Shown in pieces: positions 10,541 through 16,672 of a DNA stretch of 27,630 nucleotides. This DNA comes from a virus. Each line of letters opens with the position of its first letter. The first letter of the stretch is position 1. The stretch is taken from UHGV virus genome UHGV-1949486; one strand, written 5' to 3'. A program made the position numbers and the translations under genes. The notes under the pieces were generated by a model that searched no databases, had not been told where the DNA came from, and saw only the letters and a program-made list of their open reading frames with translations.

Positions 10541-11091
10541 GAGATCACCCCGTAAATCTGTTCCCGCACCATCTTCAGGGTTTCCAGACTCAGGCGGGTG
10601 TCGCCGGACTTCGCCTGTTTTTCCAGAGCATTCATCCGCGCCTCAATTTTTGCCAGCACCTCGGCCCGGAATCGCTTGTGGGTCACCGAAGCACGTACCA
10701 GTGTGGCTATACTTTCCGAAGCAGTGGCCAGCAGTTTTGCGCGTTTTGCAGGGTCATCATTTTCCCCGATTTCCTGCAGACGCATCAGAACATCCAGCAT
10801 CTCGGTCTGAATAAGTGCCATCATCCCGGCAGAACGATCGTCCGCCTCGTCACCGGCTTCCTGTGCCATCAGACGCGCGGCCTCGGTGGCGGCGCGGATG
10901 CGGGCCAGTTGTCGCTCCATTTTGTAGCCAAACCGCTGCAGGGAAGAGCGGGTGATGACGTATCCCTTCTCCTTCAGCAGGGCTTCCAGCCGGGCATATC
11001 CACTGAAGTTATTCTCCGTCAGTGCCCGCTCCAGCCAGCGGCGGACCTCCGTCGGCAGAGAATCAATGCTGCTGCGACGTCCCATAATCAC
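10537..11091 (-). CDS. Terminase small subunit-like DNA-binding protein (Mu gp27-like, DUF3486)
   Basis: 184 aa; N-terminus MIMGRRSSIDSLPTEVRRWLERAL... resembles the Mu gp27 family; 4-bp overlap with the terminase large subunit start. Confidence 0.6.
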   Translation of the reverse strand: MIMGRRSSIDSLPTEVRRWLERALTENNFSGYARLEALLKEKGYVITRSSLQRFGYKMERQLARIRAATEAARLMAQEAGDEADDRSAGMMALIQTEMLDVLMRLQEIGENDDPAKRAKLLATASESIATLVRASVTHKRFRAEVLAKIEARMNALEKQAKSGDTRLSLETLKMVREQIYGVIS

Positions 11092-11399
11092 TCACTCCAG
11101 TATTTTTCCGGGCGGGCAATACCCGGGCCGCATTCCACGGTGTATTCCACAATATCCACACCAAGGCGACTCAGATCGGCAAACCAGTCACCGGACGGTC
11201 TCTTCTCCAGCTCCACCATTTTGCGATCTGCCAGATAATCAAGCTCCCGGCGCAGCTCCAGTTGCGTGGTGTCCGGGTAGATGGCACGGGACACGTCCAG
11301 CAGCAACGTCTCGCTGGCGGTGTAAGGGCGGGTTTTGTTCAGGGCAACCAGCAGACTCCAGCGCAGGGATTCGCGGCGTACCCGGGTAATATCGACCAT
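11088..11399 (-). CDS. Hypothetical protein (Mu gp26 position)
   Basis: 103-aa ORF, translationally coupled to its neighbours. Confidence 0.45.
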   Translation of the reverse strand: MVDITRVRRESLRWSLLVALNKTRPYTASETLLLDVSRAIYPDTTQLELRRELDYLADRKMVELEKRPSGDWFADLSRLGVDIVEYTVECGPGIARPEKYWSE

Positions 11400-11725
11400 T
11401 ATTGACCTCCGGTATTGCGGTACTGCTGTACCACTTCCAGTTTGTTATAAAGCGCGTCCAGTTTGGCCTCAATGACTGTCTGGCCACGGATATAATCCTC
11501 TCGACGGACATAATTCAGCGGTAAATCCGCTTTAAATCGCATAAATTCTTTTTCCAGCTCGCCCCAGTTGGAGGCGGATTGTTGCAGGGCCTGTTCAAGG
11601 GAGGCGAATCGTGCCGCCTGGCGTTCTTCTGTTTTACTGAACAACCATTTGGCGAGCCCTCCCACAAACCCCATGAAGGTGAGCAGAAAACTCACCACCG
11701 TCCAGAATTCAACCTGCAGTGTCAT
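11399..11725 (-). CDS. Hypothetical membrane protein (Mu gp25 position)
   Basis: 108 aa with N-terminal hydrophobic helix (WTVVSFLLTFMGFVGGLAKWLF) then a charged coiled-coil-like tail. Confidence 0.5.
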   Translation of the reverse strand: MTLQVEFWTVVSFLLTFMGFVGGLAKWLFSKTEERQAARFASLEQALQQSASNWGELEKEFMRFKADLPLNYVRREDYIRGQTVIEAKLDALYNKLEVVQQYRNTGGQ

Positions 11726-12372
11726 TTCTGTAATCCTTCCCGTTCATCCAGTAACGCGTTTATCTGGTTCCGCCAGCGACGACATTGTCCTGCGTTGTCG
11801 ATGATGTTGGCGAGAACGTCACGCTGGGAGACACCCGAATCGCGTAACCGGGTGTCAGTGGTTTCAGGTTGCCCGGTCGCTGTGCCAGAGCGGGTGCCAG
11901 CGGCGGCAACTGAGTCTGAATGACCGGTGTCGACGGATGCGTTGTCATATCCGAGTGCGGCGTTGTACTGGCGCACGAAACCGCGAGTAAACACGCACTC
12001 AATGGGATGGCTCTTACCTTTTTCATCAATCCAGCGCTGTGTGACATCGTTAATTTGCCCCTGTAGTTGTTTATTCCGGCTCTCCAGTTGAGCAATCTGC
12101 TCAAGATAACCGGCTTCAGCCCGCTGCCCGGCGGCCACCTGCTCCTGATACCGTCTGGCCCAGGCCCGCAGCGCAGCATTCTCAAGCGTTGCCTGCTCCG
12201 TTTTGTACGTGTCGAACGCTGACTGCAACTGACTGAGCGCGGTATCACCGTCACGCTTTGCAGAGTCATGACCACTTCTGTATCCCATGGCATACAGGCC
12301 GACCAGAAAGGCATTGATAAGAATGGCCAGCAGAATGCCGCGCCACGGCAGCTTTTTAACCAGATGCCACAC
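11722..12372 (-). CDS. Inner-membrane spanin (i-spanin, Rz-like)
   Basis: GTG at 12372 preceded by a GGGGAGG Shine-Dalgarno 8 nt upstream; N-terminal KK plus transmembrane helix (LPWRGILLAILINAFLVGLYAMGY) followed by a long coiled-coil periplasmic domain; directly downstream of the endolysin; contains an embedded lipoprotein ORF. Confidence 0.6.
   Translation of the reverse strand: MWHLVKKLPWRGILLAILINAFLVGLYAMGYRSGHDSAKRDGDTALSQLQSAFDTYKTEQATLENAALRAWARRYQEQVAAGQRAEAGYLEQIAQLESRNKQLQGQINDVTQRWIDEKGKSHPIECVFTRGFVRQYNAALGYDNASVDTGHSDSVAAAGTRSGTATGQPETTDTRLRDSGVSQRDVLANIIDNAGQCRRWRNQINALLDEREGLQK
11760..12026 (-). CDS. Outer-membrane spanin (o-spanin, Rz1-like lipoprotein) embedded in the i-spanin gene
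   Basis: 88-aa ORF in an alternative frame wholly inside the i-spanin gene; MKKVRAIPLSACLLAVSCAS signal with lipobox A-V-S-C; proline-rich mature part. Confidence 0.6.
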   Translation of the reverse strand: MKKVRAIPLSACLLAVSCASTTPHSDMTTHPSTPVIQTQLPPLAPALAQRPGNLKPLTPGYAIRVSPSVTFSPTSSTTQDNVVAGGTR

Positions 12373-12976
12373 AACTGCTGCCTCCCCATGTGAGATATCG
12401 CGGTGCCAGTTCGCGCAGGATGCGCTGCGGATAATGGCGGTTCTCCCGCCAGCTGGCCGCATTGCGTCCGGCATTCACCGTGGCGACATGTCCGAACCAG
12501 CGGGTGCTGTCCAGCCCCTGCTGCGAGGCCAGCCGTTTGTCCCGCTGTACCCAGCCCAGACCACCGTTATAGCCTGACAGCGTCATGGCCATACGCTCGC
12601 AGTCACTGGCGGCGCTGACGCGTTGCCACAGCCAGCGGTCATAGCTGACCAGCGCCCGGATGGCCCACGCCGGATTAAACGGTTCACGGCTGTTAAGCCC
12701 CGGCATCAGCTGACTTATCCAGTCAGCGGTGGTGGGCATAAACTGCGCCAGTCCCTGAGCGCCAGCCGGCGAGACCGCATCAGGTCGCCAGCCGCTTTCC
12801 TGATGCAGCTGCGCGGCGAAGTCGGCCACCGGCGCAGACAGTCCCCATTCAAGCCGGGCATTACGGATCACATCATCGCGATACTGCAGCGCAACCTGCG
12901 GAGGCTGCGCTGCGCATGCCTGGCTGAAAAAGCCGCCACACCAGAGCAACATTGCGACAAAGAATACCCATGCCAT
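12356..12976 (-). CDS. Endolysin: lytic transglycosylase (SLT domain) with N-terminal signal peptide or SAR-type anchor
   Basis: SLT-like catalytic region (EWGLSAP...QLHQESGWRPDAVSPAGAQGLAQFMPTTA); ATG at 12976 gives MAWVFFVAMLLWCGGFFSQACAA, a hydrophobic signal-like N-terminus; the ORF could instead start at ATG 13096 (2 nt after the holin stop). Confidence 0.7.
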   Translation of the reverse strand: MAWVFFVAMLLWCGGFFSQACAAQPPQVALQYRDDVIRNARLEWGLSAPVADFAAQLHQESGWRPDAVSPAGAQGLAQFMPTTADWISQLMPGLNSREPFNPAWAIRALVSYDRWLWQRVSAASDCERMAMTLSGYNGGLGWVQRDKRLASQQGLDSTRWFGHVATVNAGRNAASWRENRHYPQRILRELAPRYLTWGGSSCVASG

Positions 12977-13098
12977 ATGAACCAGAAAGGTCCCGGCGCG
13001 GACTGACAGGCGTTCGGTTCTGATGAAGACCCGAAAGGCTTCGAAAGCCAGTTTCAGGGACATGCATACAATCCAGGTGATCTGCGGCCAGTTCATGA

Positions 13099-13449
13099 TT
13101 AAAGCCCCATCGCAACAGCCAGACAGACAGCTGCAACAATCAGTGCACGGCGGATTAACGCAGCAGAAAATACAAGGTGAAGGCCGGTCTGCACAGGGAA
13201 ACGCCCTTCAGCCATCAGCCTGTCTTCATGTTTCAGGTACTGACCGGGACGGGCTTTGGGGAAGAGCGAACGGTCAAGCCAGTACCCCAGCACTGCTGCC
13301 AGCGTGATGAGTGCCAGCTTGTAGATCACAACAGGCAACTGCTGTGGCGAGACCAGAGCGATGATGCCCAGCAACAGCACTGAGGTCAGCAGCCAGCCGC
13401 TGAGGCGAGGTTTTTTAACAGGGGGAATGAATTTTTTCAGGTTTTTCAT
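13099..13449 (-). CDS. Putative holin-like membrane protein (first gene of the late operon in this window)
   Basis: ATG at 13449 with AGGAGA Shine-Dalgarno 7 nt upstream (long ORF to 13482 trimmed); about 116 aa with two to three hydrophobic helices; immediately upstream of the endolysin. Confidence 0.5.
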   Translation of the reverse strand: MKNLKKFIPPVKKPRLSGWLLTSVLLLGIIALVSPQQLPVVIYKLALITLAAVLGYWLDRSLFPKARPGQYLKHEDRLMAEGRFPVQTGLHLVFSAALIRRALIVAAVCLAVAMGL

Positions 13450-13671
13450 GTGTGTCTCCTCGTTTGGTGGAGACAGCATCACAAATGTGGCGGGATACGG
13501 ATTTTAAACAGCGTTAATAGTGAAGATGTAAACGTGCACTGCATGATGGCTTTGAAAGAACGACCAGCCCGGTACCCGAACACCGGGCTGGCCATCGCCC
13601 CACAGGAATGCGCTGTGAGCCGACCAAGGTTCAGTCAGTCTCGCGAGACCAGACTAGCCTGCCATATTTTT

Positions 13672-13677
13672 TATAAT
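13672..13677 (+). promoter_or_regulatory. Candidate -10 element (TATAAT) upstream of the dam gene
   Basis: TATAAT hexamer 20 nt upstream of the dam ATG; no convincing -35 found. Confidence 0.3.
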
Positions 13678-13696
13678 TGTAAAAGGCTTACAGATT

Positions 13697-14467
13697 ATGA
13701 AAATGCAGACATTACCCATCGTTCCATGGATTGGTGGCAAACGCCGCCTTGCAAAACACATCCTGCCGCTGTTTCCGGCGCATGAATGTTATGTGGAGCC
13801 GTTTTGTGGGGCAGCAGCGCTCTATTTTCTTAAGGTACCCGGCAAGATCGAAGTCATTAATGATATCAACGGTGAGCTGGTGAACCTGTATCGGGTGGTA
13901 AAACATCATCTGGAAGAATTTGTACGCCAGTTCAAATGGGCGCTGGTCAGCCGGCAGATCTACAAATGGCTGCAGATCACCCCGGAAGAAACACTGACGG
14001 ATATCCAGCGTGCAGCACGGTTCTACTACCTTCAGAAGCAGGCGTTTGGGGGCAAGGTGGCGGAGCACAGCTTTGGTACCTCCACCATATCCCCGCCACG
14101 CTTCAACCTGCTGCGTATTGAAGAAGAACTGTCAGCGGCACACCTGCGGCTTTCCAGAACGGTCATAGAACACATGGACTGGCAACAGTGCATAGAACGA
14201 TATGATCGCCCGCATACGTTGTTCTACTGTGACCCTCCATACTGGGGAACGGAAGGTTATGGTGTGGAGTTCGGACTAGAAAATTATGATCATATGGCAG
14301 ATTTAGCACGCAGGATCAAAGGGAAGATGATTATATCGGTGAACGATATCCCGGAAATGCGGCAGGCATTCAACGGTCTAAATATTCAGTCGGTTGATAT
14401 CAGCTACAACCTCAAGATCACTGGCAAATCCAGTCGCAAGAAGGAACTCATTATCCTCAACTTTTGA
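13697..14467 (+). CDS. dam: DNA adenine methyltransferase (Dam-like, D12-class N6-adenine MTase), orphan
   Basis: 256 aa; FxGxG-type AdoMet motif (EPFCGAAALYF) and catalytic DPPY motif (FYCDPPYWGTEGYG); N-terminus WIGGKRRL typical of Dam; no adjacent restriction endonuclease gene. Confidence 0.85.
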   Translation: MKMQTLPIVPWIGGKRRLAKHILPLFPAHECYVEPFCGAAALYFLKVPGKIEVINDINGELVNLYRVVKHHLEEFVRQFKWALVSRQIYKWLQITPEETLTDIQRAARFYYLQKQAFGGKVAEHSFGTSTISPPRFNLLRIEEELSAAHLRLSRTVIEHMDWQQCIERYDRPHTLFYCDPPYWGTEGYGVEFGLENYDHMADLARRIKGKMIISVNDIPEMRQAFNGLNIQSVDISYNLKITGKSSRKKELIILNF

Positions 14468-15662
14468 CCGAATAGTAAGACTTCATGCAGTGAATCAAGT
14501 ACTGCATGAAGTCAAGGGCTGGTTTTGTGTACCAAAAATAAACAGTGATAGCGGTAATAATTCCCATAACTAGAACACCACGTATAATCCAGAACGTACG
14601 TTTCTGCGTGTCTAGTCGCGCAGAAATACTGCTAAATACACCAGCCACGTCATCTTTAATGAAGGAATATTCCTTATTAATCTGTTTTTCTTTGTATTCA
14701 ATTTCTTCGCCTAAGGCCTTTATAGATTGCATCTGGTTCGAAAGTGCCAGCCAGATTAACGTTGCAGCAAAAATGCATCCCAGAAGAATTATTGTGTTTG
14801 TTATCCCTTGGCCTGACCATTTCGTAGCCACTTTGAATTGGGTAGCTACGATAACAGAGGCAACAGGAATGCCAAGTATATGGTTCTGGATATCTGAAAA
14901 CGCTTTGTGGATTTTACCCATTTCTTCGACTTTTGCAGCACGCAGTTGATCCATTACTTTGTCATAAGAGAATCCAGAAGAGTAGATACGATACCCTTTC
15001 AGAAACTTTTCATGCAGACGCTGAATATTGTCCAGTAAATAAGCGAATACTAGAGGTGAATCAATTCCATCACTAACTGCTTGAATACTTTCAATCAGAA
15101 TATCTAGCTTCTGATCCTTATGGGTATCATCATTGAAACAAGCTATAAGGTTATCAAGATACTCCCTTTGCAAATTTTGTACATTTTCTGCAGCGAAGTG
15201 CGGTAATAGCTTGATAACTTCTTTTTTCAGAAAAACTAACTGACAAGTTGAGTTATCAAAGTAGGCCGCGGCCTCTTTTAGCAGGTTAACGAACTCGAGA
15301 ATCTTCCGGTAGTTGCTGATGAAAACGGGGATATCTTCATCATCATTACGAAATTTTGTTTCTAGGATGAAGTAATTAGCTGGCTCAAGGCACTGATGCT
15401 TTGGAGCATTTAGCAATTTTTCATGGGTGGAAAACACAAGTCCCAGTCCACTCCGTGGTGACGTCACACGTAGGATGATCGTGTTACCTGGAGCGATAGT
15501 GCCTGTATCAATAGAAAGACCATATTCACGAGGATCATCAAGCAAAGTATCAACCAGATCACAATCGGACTGATCTAAGAGCAACAGCGAACCGACACGA
15601 AACCCCTCTTGGAATTCCATACGACGATACAGAGCTGTCAGCATCTCAAATGAAATCGCCAC
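14457..15662 (-). CDS. Uncharacterised protein with two C-terminal transmembrane helices; downstream partner of the YejK/NdpA-like gene (candidate effector of a two-gene accessory system)
   Basis: 401-aa ORF starting 2 nt after the upstream gene stop; hydrophobic helices GITNTIILLGCIFAATLIWLALS and FWIIRGVLVMGIITAITVYFWY near the C-terminus; AT-rich codon usage unlike flanking phage genes; no family recognised by eye. Confidence 0.6.
   Translation of the reverse strand: MAISFEMLTALYRRMEFQEGFRVGSLLLLDQSDCDLVDTLLDDPREYGLSIDTGTIAPGNTIILRVTSPRSGLGLVFSTHEKLLNAPKHQCLEPANYFILETKFRNDDEDIPVFISNYRKILEFVNLLKEAAAYFDNSTCQLVFLKKEVIKLLPHFAAENVQNLQREYLDNLIACFNDDTHKDQKLDILIESIQAVSDGIDSPLVFAYLLDNIQRLHEKFLKGYRIYSSGFSYDKVMDQLRAAKVEEMGKIHKAFSDIQNHILGIPVASVIVATQFKVATKWSGQGITNTIILLGCIFAATLIWLALSNQMQSIKALGEEIEYKEKQINKEYSFIKDDVAGVFSSISARLDTQKRTFWIIRGVLVMGIITAITVYFWYTKPALDFMQYLIHCMKSYYSVKS
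14479..14513. terminator. Perfect 13-bp-stem hairpin (9-nt loop) at the convergence of dam and the 401-aa gene; candidate bidirectional terminator
   Basis: GACTTCATGCAGT gaatcaagt ACTGCATGAAGTC read directly; a T-rich tract (GGTTTTGTGT) lies 7 nt downstream on the plus strand; overlaps the last 18 codons of the minus-strand gene. Confidence 0.5.
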
Positions 15663-15664
15663 GA

Positions 15665-16672
15665 TTAAACCTCAGTCATCCACATTTCCCTAAATTCTTC
15701 AGGTACATTACGTAGGGTGATAATATTTGTTTCCGGATCATAATCAATATAGCCTTCAGTTTTCCCTTCCCGGTCAAACTTAAGTTCCCAATATTTAGAC
15801 TTGCCTTTAAAAGATACCAGAGCCCGAATGACTCGACCATCAGGAACGAAGCCATCCGATAACTCCAACTCTTCAGCAGCAAGTTTACCAGATAACTCCT
15901 CGGGAGCCTGGGGCCAAATGGCATTAACAAGGGTTTCAAGACTAAGTGGTTCACCAGCCTTACTTAGTGCATGTAAGTGTTCAAACGCACTCTTAAGAAA
16001 TGCATCTTTTTCAGCGCCGTCAAGTCCTTTCTCTGCCGCAAATGCTTTTAAAACGTCACGTAACTTTTCAGACTCTCGTTTGGCGATTAAGACATCATTA
16101 CAGCCTAGGAACTGTTTAAAATAGTTTGAAACATTACCTTGCCCCTTAAGAAAACTGATATAGCGCTCTGCGCCACTTTCCCACGCGGTTAAGTCAATGC
16201 GCCCAGCCATACGCAGCTTAGCAATATCAAGATAGGTACTATCTTGGATGTTAAAATCATCTGTGACAGTGGACCCAATGGTAGCGCTTACAATAGCTAT
16301 CAACAGGTGTTCATTGTGTCCTATCACGATATTTGCAAAAAGAACATAACCACCAGTAGCCATGTTTTCTCGCTGAGAACGTTCCGTCAGGTGATGCATC
16401 ATTCGGCAGGAACTTTGGTAGAAATCATCAACACCTTCGAGAAAGTCCCCAGCCATTCGTTCCATAGGATAGTTATCCGTATCGCCTTCAAAATAGCCAT
16501 AACCTTTACCTGTGCGTCCTGCATATTTTGCACAAATATCGTTTATAAGGCGCTGAGAGGCTTCAGTAACTAGACCTTCTTCAGGACTCAATCTCTCAGA
16601 AGCGTCTCCATTTTGTTGTTTGTCTAAAATGTGAACTACAACGTGTTTAACTTCAATGGTCTGCTCAGACAT
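15665..16672 (-). CDS. YejK/NdpA-family nucleoid-associated-protein homolog (phage-borne)
   Basis: 335 aa, same length as E. coli YejK; recognisable family blocks (HVVVHILDK, GGYVLFA, HLLIAIV, RIDLTAWESGAERYISFLKGQG) matching YejK as recalled from memory; strong AGGTGG Shine-Dalgarno 7 nt upstream of the ATG at 16672; AT-rich. Confidence 0.7.
   Translation of the reverse strand: MSEQTIEVKHVVVHILDKQQNGDASERLSPEEGLVTEASQRLINDICAKYAGRTGKGYGYFEGDTDNYPMERMAGDFLEGVDDFYQSSCRMMHHLTERSQRENMATGGYVLFANIVIGHNEHLLIAIVSATIGSTVTDDFNIQDSTYLDIAKLRMAGRIDLTAWESGAERYISFLKGQGNVSNYFKQFLGCNDVLIAKRESEKLRDVLKAFAAEKGLDGAEKDAFLKSAFEHLHALSKAGEPLSLETLVNAIWPQAPEELSGKLAAEELELSDGFVPDGRVIRALVSFKGKSKYWELKFDREGKTEGYIDYDPETNIITLRNVPEEFREMWMTEV

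Follow-up and report, generated by a model that had tools for sequence, protein, structure and literature searches.

The locus considered here raises the question of how a phage endolysin whose predicted export helix is preceded by another helix could reach the periplasm and be restrained or released there, and to what kind of lysis cassette such an enzyme belongs. It is located in the virus genome UHGV-1949486, a stretch of 27,630 nucleotides that was analysed as a whole and is called the window below; all coordinates are window positions, and the whole cassette lies on the minus strand with leftward transcription. At a probability that we put at about 0.8, the cassette represents the late-operon lysis genes of a BcepMu-like (Bcepmuvirus-type) transposable Escherichia coli prophage, followed by the terminase and head genes. 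The cassette as such is ordinary and belongs to an already known kind, first annotated in 2004, because gp21-gp24 of BcepMu carried the same annotation in the record of that year. The element of interest is a module of two predicted helices fused to the endolysin, which is, as far as the searchable literature shows, an undescribed element; neither an endolysin with two N-terminal helices nor a study of this cassette in E. coli was found there.

Four open reading frames (ORFs), encoding a holin, an endolysin with an SLT domain, an inner-membrane spanin subunit (i-spanin) and a lipoprotein subunit of the outer membrane (o-spanin), are tightly coupled with a fifth gene for a small membrane protein, into which the operon runs on with no intervening space. 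The chromosomes of E. coli M-17, KE50, and N61 contain the 2.3-kb region at 100% identity, and it was found at an identity of at least 80% in 637 of the 5426 complete E. coli genomes, which means that about 12% of them (about one in eight) carry this prophage type; it is also present in many Salmonella, Klebsiella, Pectobacterium, and Photorhabdus genomes. The corresponding region is 96.5% identical in Escherichia phage PhiKM, which is classed in Bcepmuvirus, and 89% identical in a Klebsiella contig named KP12. Homologous genes in this order of five were also found in 80 viral contigs and in 80 genome loci, the latter representing about 75 gamma- and beta-proteobacterial species. Genes for a TerS of the Mu gp27 type, TerL, and a Mu-type portal follow on the 3′ side of the cassette, and these terminase and portal genes are intact.

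The closest described arrangement is that of Burkholderia phage BcepMu itself, with which pairwise homology was found for all five proteins. BcepMu shows the same gene order, namely gp21 (holin), gp22 (SLT endolysin), gp23 (Rz), gp24, and gp25 (membrane protein), followed by gp26, TerS, TerL, and portal (NC_005882), and its gp24, annotated as "Rz1, out of frame, embedded proline-rich protein", is embedded in the same +1 frame as the o-spanin of the window. The SLT domain of gp22 is 61% identical to residues 69-238 of the window endolysin, and gp23 is 32% identical to the window i-spanin in the C-terminal half only. The N-termini of the two endolysins differ, however, in that gp22 has 203 residues and begins with a plain 20-residue signal-like sequence (MRVLIAFVVALLGAAAPVAA/QVP, a slash marking a predicted cleavage point here and below) without the two-helix module. 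RefSeq records the window genes at the same coordinates as a "putative holin", a long-form SLT gene, and a GTG-started "lysis system spanin subunit"; the o-spanin is unannotated there and in every other record examined, and the remaining cassette genes bear generic names in these records, such as "putative lipoprotein" or "membrane protein". A scan of positions 10900-13900 for sigma-70 promoters and terminators gave counts only at the level of chance, and an Rfam scan of the whole window gave zero matches.

Table 1. Positions of the lysis genes and their predicted elements in the window, and of free-standing copies of the N-terminal module in other contigs (in the coordinates of each contig).
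Feature	Coordinates	Strand	Description
Holin	13449-13099	-	ATG start, TAA stop, 116 residues; AGGAGA 5 nucleotides upstream
mRNA hairpin, candidate translational brake on the holin	13445-13485	-	from RNA folding
Endolysin	13096-12356	-	246 residues; two-helix module, A-x-A linker, SLT domain
N-terminal module of the endolysin	12923-13096	-	residues 1-58; phrog_5479 match
A60-C61-A62, predicted signal peptidase I site	12911-12919	-	ACA/AQPP; conserved A-x-A directly after helix 2
Glu100 codon, predicted catalytic acid	12797-12799	-	motif LHQES; from Slt70 alignment
i-spanin	12372-11722	-	GTG start, TGA stop, 216 residues; GGGGAGG 8 nucleotides upstream
o-spanin, embedded in the i-spanin (+1 frame)	12047/12026-11760	-	95 residues (ATG 12047) or 88 residues (ATG 12026)
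108-residue membrane protein	11725-11399	-	BcepMu gp25 homologue; ATGA overlap with the i-spanin stop
Free-standing copies of the module	L241 1501-1659; L246 1498-1659; L247 1486-1656; L242 1501-1665; L245 1486-1659		

A preliminary description made from the window sequence had named the second gene an SLT-domain lytic transglycosylase, and this assignment stands. The endolysin matches PF01464 (SLT) over residues 97-193 with E 1e-14 and 54.2 bits (cut-off 21.3) and phrog_669 ("endolysin") with E 9e-69, and the catalytic motifs are present on alignment. In particular, Glu100 (LHQE100S) aligns with Glu478 (ARQE478S) of E. coli Slt70 (PDB 1sly/1qsa), a residue that we take from the literature to be catalytic. 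Glu100 and the motifs GAQGLAQFMP and YNGG are invariant in the alignments of relatives, as are two cysteines of the catalytic domain, Cys166 and Cys242. A role as a virion or transfer transglycosylase was considered for this gene and rejected, since it lies between the holin and spanin genes and is homologous to annotated endolysins.

The same description had left the endolysin start ambiguous between 12976 and 13096. Two in-frame ATG codons do exist at these positions, and the relatives settle the matter: judged from their sequences, the start is at 13096, not at 12976. The ATG at 13096 lies 2 nucleotides past the holin stop, and the long ORF is kept open in 64 distinct relatives (66-100% identity) with a conserved MxWPQ(I/V) directly past that stop. 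The Met codon at 12976 (Met41) is confined to the clade of the window, one member of which has Val instead, and a Shine-Dalgarno sequence is absent before it. Across 63 unique sequences, the ratio of nonsynonymous to synonymous substitution rates (dN/dS) was 0.23 over the N-terminal 53 codons, with values of 0.36 in helix 1, 0.10 in the loop, 0.20 in helix 2, and 0.10 in the 12 codons that follow, so the first 40 codons of the endolysin are, by this measure, under purifying selection. The clade of the window has a divergent helix 1 and loop, and a frameshift was considered as the origin of this odd N-terminus. Of the three frames of positions 13110-12900, set against four consensus N-termini, the annotated one alone aligned, with scores of 118-127 against at most 33 for the other frames, which indicates that the window clade is simply a divergent variant with a 12-nucleotide insertion.

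The N-terminal module so translated consists of helix 1 (residues ~6-25), a basic loop (RTERLSVRAG), and helix 2 (residues ~37-57), which ends in LLWCGGFF and is followed by SQAxA/AQPP. Residues 1-58 match phrog_5479, a family of unknown function, over profile positions 1-53 of 53 with E 5e-4; the same family matches the common enteric variant with E 5e-15 and gp20 of phage JBD67 with E 2e-29. This last protein discloses the relationship of the module. In JBD67, which is B3-like, and in JBD25, two phages from the B3-like and D3112-like transposable phages of Pseudomonas, a 52-residue ORF (JBD67 gp20, JBD25 gp25; MGAPQIIWI...LVWWGGFFG-stop) stands between the holin and the SLT endolysin and aligns end to end with the enteric module. 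A profile comparison of the module with JBD67 gp20 by hhalign gave a probability of 96% and E 5e-9 with all 52 residues aligned, and a hidden Markov model comparison of the module with the 52-residue ORF scored 29 bits against a maximum of 12.9 in 2000 shuffles. The module is thus homologous to a separate ORF, and a gene fusion or fission separates the enteric endolysin from the Pseudomonas pair. The surrounding genes are alike: JBD67 gp19-gp23 and JBD25 gp24-gp29 comprise a PF13272 holin, an SLT endolysin whose catalytic domain is about 60% identical to that of the window enzyme, a spanin, and a small membrane-tethered protein, followed by TerS. They differ in that the module has a gene to itself, which ends in GGFFG-stop, and the endolysin carries a signal of its own (MKRLLTLGLLGLLSACQPAFA), whereas the window has one ORF. 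A paper on the KP12 homologue (PMC9902359) mentions only a low-confidence N-terminal "domain" and misses the o-spanin.

The fused form is also found in Pandoraea and Collimonas, and ordinary signal peptides of the Sec type are seen on the endolysins of Pectobacterium, Brenneria, and BcepMu. Other relatives have forms collapsed to a single helix in which the two ends of the module are retained, such as MNWRQIIGIVLLWCGG...ALA/DEPP in Photorhabdus. Such one-helix N-termini (e.g., MNWRQIIGIVLLWCGGMVSPALA/DEPP) were seen in L135, L138, L141-L146, L148, and L149 (Xenorhabdus/Photorhabdus, ~2420-2500) and in L110, L113, and L137, and they have the appearance of a two-helix module that has lost an internal part. 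The Photorhabdus forms carry Arg in place of the conserved Pro4, a change that would fit a switch to an N-in signal peptide. A search seeded with the module retrieved mostly copies fused to SLT domains. It also retrieved free-standing copies of 51-57 residues (MNWPQITWI...LLYAGGFF-stop) in unrelated viral contigs, where they are not beside any endolysin and have replication-type neighbours (ATPase, DnaN-like, and phosphoesterase-like genes). The module was probably recruited to the endolysin, as an anchor or as an export signal, to judge from this distribution.

The sequence directly after the module gives a further indication of how the enzyme could be exported. A small-x-small motif, usually A-x-A, occurs at a fixed distance before the catalytic domain in nearly all of about 150 relatives. 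The -3 and -1 positions are nearly always Ala or another small residue, and the -2 position is free (R, C, H, S, N, Q, A, D), as would be expected if a signal peptidase I site were under selection. The A-x-A is kept whatever the N-terminal architecture, plain Sec-type signal peptides included. The invariant Cys166 and Cys242 would fit a periplasmic enzyme. Of the features of a Sec-type signal, a hydrophobic core followed by A-x-A is present and conserved, but about 36 residues including another helix precede it and there is no short n-region. For a signal-anchor-release (SAR) sequence, a single, weakly hydrophobic, Gly/Ala/Ser-rich, and uncleaved helix is expected, and two helices were found on the crude scales used here. 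The summed apparent insertion energy of helix 2 is -1.0 kcal/mol on such a scale, compared to +4.5 kcal/mol for the experimentally defined SAR domain of Mu gp22, and its fraction of Gly, Ala, Ser, and Thr is 0.24, compared to 0.59. Collectively, we hold it somewhat better than an even chance that the endolysin is exported by Sec via helix 2 and cleaved by signal peptidase I at the predicted site ACA62/A63. A more tentative idea, with the odds rather against it, is that the helical hairpin tethers the endolysin until the membrane is de-energised. The preliminary description had proposed a hydrophobic signal or SAR sequence at the likely N-terminus; an export signal is indeed favoured, but the stretch corresponds to helix 2 rather than to the N-terminus, and its SAR character is disfavoured.

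A likeness to Lys44 of the Oenococcus phage fOg44 was drawn earlier for lysins of the KS10/BcepMu type (PMC2628397). The window endolysin resembles Lys44 in Sec export with a cleavable signal, which is a prediction in the case of the window, and in a holin that de-energises the membrane. The two differ in that Lys44 has an ordinary N-terminal signal peptide and a Gram-positive host, whereas the predicted signal in the window is internal and lies past a helix and a basic loop.

The start of the i-spanin overlaps the end of the endolysin gene by 17 nucleotides. The full-length protein matches phrog_1403 ("Rz-like spanin") with E 8e-92 and is predicted to have a transmembrane helix at residues 13-29 (Kyte-Doolittle 2.45) and a long periplasmic domain with two Cys residues. 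Nearly all enteric relatives keep the arrangement TGGGGAGG-N8-GTG despite their differing i-spanin N-termini. For homology to lambda Rz, only sub-threshold matches to unrelated Pfam families were found, and other Rz-like PHROGs were weakly matched; as far as its sequence tells, the i-spanin is a subunit that would work like Rz from outside the Rz sequence family. The preliminary description had assigned an i-spanin with a GTG start and a strong GGGGAGG Shine-Dalgarno sequence, containing a fully embedded lipoprotein with a clean lipobox in the Rz/Rz1 architecture, and both assignments hold up well.

The support for the embedded lipoprotein comes from its signal sequence and from its effect on the surrounding frame. 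The o-spanin N-terminus reads MKKVRAIPLSACLLAVS/CAS, with the lipobox LLAVS/C, the Cys codon at 11975-11973, and Ala at position +2, and the mature part is proline-rich, comprises 71 residues, and is the same from either start; distant relatives keep an ATG at the position of 12047 rather than 12026. About 50 distinct relatives keep the embedded ORF open, and in these the lipobox Cys and a LPPLAPALAQRPGNLKPLTPGYA motif are retained, and the Cys is followed by A, S, or G and never by Asp. The synonymous substitution rate (dS) of the i-spanin frame is 0.17 in the overlap and 0.67-0.77 outside it, a fourfold drop exactly at the embedded ORF, which shows that the embedded o-spanin is a real gene and that two overlapping coding frames are under constraint. 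It is related to BcepMu gp24 with E 1e-5. The Pfam and PHROG libraries gave no family match for the embedded ORF, as is to be expected from how seldom o-spanins of this kind are annotated (Kongari et al. 2018, PMC6139136). According to the same study, about 70% of embedded spanins start at 0.4-0.5 and end at 0.9-1.0 of the i-spanin length; the o-spanin of the window begins at 0.50-0.53, in or just beyond that range, and ends at 0.94, within it. Compared to lambda Rz/Rz1, the pair is likewise built from a subunit of the inner membrane that has an N-terminal helix and a lipoprotein of the outer membrane whose +1-frame gene lies entirely within that of the first, but the lambda i-spanin has 153 residues rather than 216 and the mature lambda o-spanin 40 rather than 71, and in the mature window o-spanin, set against that of lambda, the only Cys is the lipid-modified one.

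The first gene had been described as a holin-like small membrane protein, which is well supported by its family matches and its position beside the endolysin. It matches PF13272 (Holin_2-3) with E 7e-42 and 142.4 bits (cut-off 27) and phrog_1528 ("holin"), in which BcepMu gp21 is also placed, with E 9e-55, and a homologue is found immediately 5′ of the SLT gene in 78 of the 80 genome loci. The name that Pfam itself gives to PF13272 is that of a "putative" holin. The N-terminus is basic (MKNLKKFIPPVKKPR), and hydropathy indicates hydrophobic segments at residues 17-33, 38-54, and 98-114. The protein is without the charged, hydrophilic C-terminal tail that is general among holins, its C-terminus (...CLAVAMGL) lying inside the third hydrophobic segment.

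RNA folding predicts a hairpin in which the holin Shine-Dalgarno sequence (GGAGAC) and AUG are paired with an upstream GUCUCC/UUUGUG segment. Its stability of -14.2 kcal/mol corresponds to z -3.18, and 0 of 200 shuffles were equally stable. The 5′ arm GTCTCC is conserved among enteric relatives and the loop is variable; in Symbiopectobacterium relatives the equivalent stem is built from other bases. Such a structure over the ribosome-binding site may damp holin translation. A dual holin start of the lambda S type (GTG 13482 / ATG 13479) was rejected, since many relatives have the upstream ATG in another frame, so that it is not a conserved holin start. About 50 nucleotides before the holin start, an invariant TTTAAAAT box (13508-13501, minus strand) was noticed, a candidate for the -10 element of a late promoter that depends on an activator. 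The gap between the holin and Dam methylase genes (13450-13696 in the window, 2360-3912 in L002, 3561-4745 in L003) varies in content: about 1.4 kb with two hypothetical genes occupy it in PhiKM and many E. coli relatives, and a 567-nucleotide gene in the KP12 contig.

The cassette had been called complete, and the holin, endolysin, and spanin pair are all present, but a fifth gene that probably belongs to it, by analogy with related phages, had been left out. The 108-residue product is predicted to have a transmembrane helix at residues 9-25 and a helical cytoplasmic part. It is 53% identical to BcepMu gp25, matches phrog_462 with E 2e-36, and is of a type that follows the spanin in 62 of the 80 genome loci. 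In Mu, gp25 is a releasin (PMC9239132). The window shares with Mu a transposable lifestyle and the order of endolysin, spanin, small N-terminally anchored protein, gp26, and TerS, and the 108-residue protein has the size, predicted topology, and slot of Mu gp25. For a releasin, about 100 residues, an N-terminal membrane helix, and a gene no more than five genes downstream of the endolysin in a transposable phage are expected; the 108-residue protein agrees with this as the second gene past the endolysin. The two systems differ in that the Mu enzyme is a muramidase whose single SAR helix is weakly hydrophobic, and Mu has no holin (PMC9239132), whereas the window has a holin and an SLT enzyme with two helices and A-x-A.

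A sequence homologue of the Mu releasin was looked for in the 108-residue protein and rejected, as Pfam, BLASTP, and hhalign were all negative. PF10805 (DUF2730) matched 0 of 16 family members even at E 10, and BLASTP of the 108-residue protein against Mu gp25 gave nothing. Mu gp25 and JBD25 gp29 belong to phrog_736 and the 108-residue protein to phrog_462; two of its homologues bear the UniRef name "DUF2730". The 108-residue protein can be regarded as an analogue of the Mu releasin in position and topology, and a role for it in lysis is plausible on that basis. A DUF2730-type protein occupies the same slot in L115 (3578-3958, Citrobacter braakii), in L158 (2009-2554, Collimonas), and in JBD25. 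The fused endolysin and the i-spanin of L115 are the same as those of the window, and JBD67, whose other lysis genes are as in JBD25, has the phrog_462 type; the exchange in this slot looks like a non-homologous replacement. Past the cassette, a 103-residue gene (11088-11399, minus strand) in the Mu gp26 position matches phrog_436 with E 1e-40; a further match, to the NCBIfam VpaChn25_0724 phage protein family, is below threshold.

A working order of lysis could be proposed from these elements. Helix 2 would act as an internal export signal through which the SLT domain is delivered to the periplasm by Sec without holin holes. The endolysin would then be cut at ACA62/A63 by signal peptidase I, or be tethered by its hairpin until de-energisation, and in either case the holin would time lysis by collapsing the membrane potential and not by passing the enzyme. 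The hairpin at the holin ribosome-binding site would damp holin translation. The spanin pair would then fuse or disrupt the outer membrane. By analogy with the position and topology of the Mu releasin, the 108-residue protein might assist in release or activation of the enzyme, a suggestion to which we would give somewhat less than even odds. Stated for the fused module as a whole, a free-standing two-helix gene would have been joined in frame to the SLT domain, and one ORF would yield two signal-peptidase products, a membrane hairpin of ~62 residues and a soluble periplasmic transglycosylase, or else a stable tether that needs a dedicated release factor, possibly the phrog_462 protein as a non-homologous counterpart of the Mu releasin; this is a speculative scheme, a real possibility that we would nonetheless bet against.

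The other ways of reading the endolysin differ in what they make of its two helices. The enzyme could be a true SAR endolysin, uncleaved, held inactive in the membrane, and freed when a pinholin depolarises it, possibly with the 108-residue protein as releasin. The SLT endolysins of Pseudomonas Mu-like siphophages, which are paired with DUF2730 proteins, have been classed as SAR (PMC9239132), a holin and a protein in the releasin slot are both present in the window, and helix 2 contains Gly-Gly and Trp residues. However, helix 2 inserts favourably and is poor in Gly, Ala, Ser, and Thr beside the Mu gp22 SAR domain, a hairpin of two helices should resist extraction more than a single SAR helix, the A-x-A is selected in all variants including those with ordinary Sec signal peptides, and the 108-residue protein is not a DUF2730 member, so that SAR release appears unlikely, if worth keeping in view. 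If translation instead began at Met41, the 120 nucleotides after the holin would be untranslated or incidental and the enzyme would have one N-terminal signal or SAR sequence. The in-frame ATG at 12976 would give an N-terminus (MAWVFFVAMLLWCGGFFSQACA/A) that resembles a signal peptide and a product of 206 residues, close to the 203 of BcepMu gp22, and helix 1 of the window clade is poorly hydrophobic; but that codon has no Shine-Dalgarno sequence and no counterpart Met in any relative outside the clade, the 40 codons before it are open, start with a conserved ATG, match phrog_5479, and are under purifying selection, and no frameshift origin was found for the variant, all of which makes this start improbable. 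It is more doubtful still, to the point of being hardly credible, that the cassette comes from a decaying, non-functional prophage in which the embedded ORF and the long endolysin N-terminus are relics. Some relatives are clearly damaged, as in L070 (IMGVR_UViG_2910425090_000009), a decaying copy in which the SLT ORF is truncated to 177 residues, the lipobox Cys of the o-spanin is changed to Tyr, and the o-spanin frame continues beyond the i-spanin stop. In the window, all ORFs are intact, selection acts on the N-terminal module and on the dual-coded o-spanin, the deposited PhiKM genome has a 96.5% identical cassette, and the neighbouring terminase and portal genes are intact.

The reading that we prefer, namely Sec export via helix 2 of an endolysin started at 13096 in a five-gene cassette, has to be set against several observations that count against it. 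On sequence grounds, the related SLT endolysins of Pseudomonas were placed among the SAR enzymes by Chamblee et al. (PMC9239132). Helix 1 of the window clade is weak (K15, E19, and R22; summed energy +4.9), an internal Met41 exists, and for this particular prophage the shorter product, or both products, may be made. The copies of the module in replication-type neighbourhoods indicate that the module is not lysis-specific. The AlphaFold model of the full endolysin, which places helices at residues 3-25 and 30-53, is of low confidence, with a mean predicted local distance difference test (pLDDT) of 62.7 and a predicted template modelling score (pTM) of 0.50 from a 25-sequence alignment, and is too weak for a fold search. 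For the holin hairpin, the arms of the stem are near-invariant in close relatives, which leaves thin covariation support. For the fifth gene, hhalign gave the 108-residue protein a probability of only 0.9% against Mu gp25 and 3.1% against JBD25 gp29.

Two observations concern the wider surroundings. The KP12 contig mentioned above (L003; OM835952.1, Klebsiella phage KP12 clone KP12_2) is a 34.9-kb record that is filed under Vequintavirinae and yet shows a BcepMu-like gene order, with 93% of the query region aligned at 89% nucleotide identity; the published KP12 "genome" is reported to have two different lysis cassettes (PMC9902359), and the record may represent a co-purified or induced Mu-like prophage rather than a part of KP12. 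In the window itself, two genes at 14457-16672 (minus strand), between the Dam methylase and a repressor-like helix-turn-helix gene, have a GC content of 41-44% within a prophage of 55-60%. One encodes a 401-residue protein that has membrane segments at its C-terminal end and gives a weak PADLOC match to KwaA (E 8e-5), and the other a 335-residue nucleoid-associated protein of the NA37/YejK type (PF04245, E 1e-80). From their composition and matches, the low-GC pair look like acquired cargo that is possibly related to defence.

The coordinates and tests given here would correct current annotations, in which the o-spanin is missing and other genes have generic names. The start of the endolysin matters for cloning the enzyme as an antibacterial, because its first 62 residues are membrane-targeting and not catalytic. 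The occurrence of a DUF2730 releasin and of an unrelated phrog_462 protein as interchangeable occupants of one slot offers a handle on releasin function. The relatives also provide a natural series of N-termini, with the module as a separate ORF, fused to the enzyme, collapsed to one helix, or replaced by a plain signal peptide, all at the same A-x-A junction, by which the export and restraint of endolysins become directly testable. If the scheme of two products or a releasable tether is true, the fused module would add a class of endolysins beside the cytoplasmic, SAR, signal-peptide, and C-terminal-anchor types.

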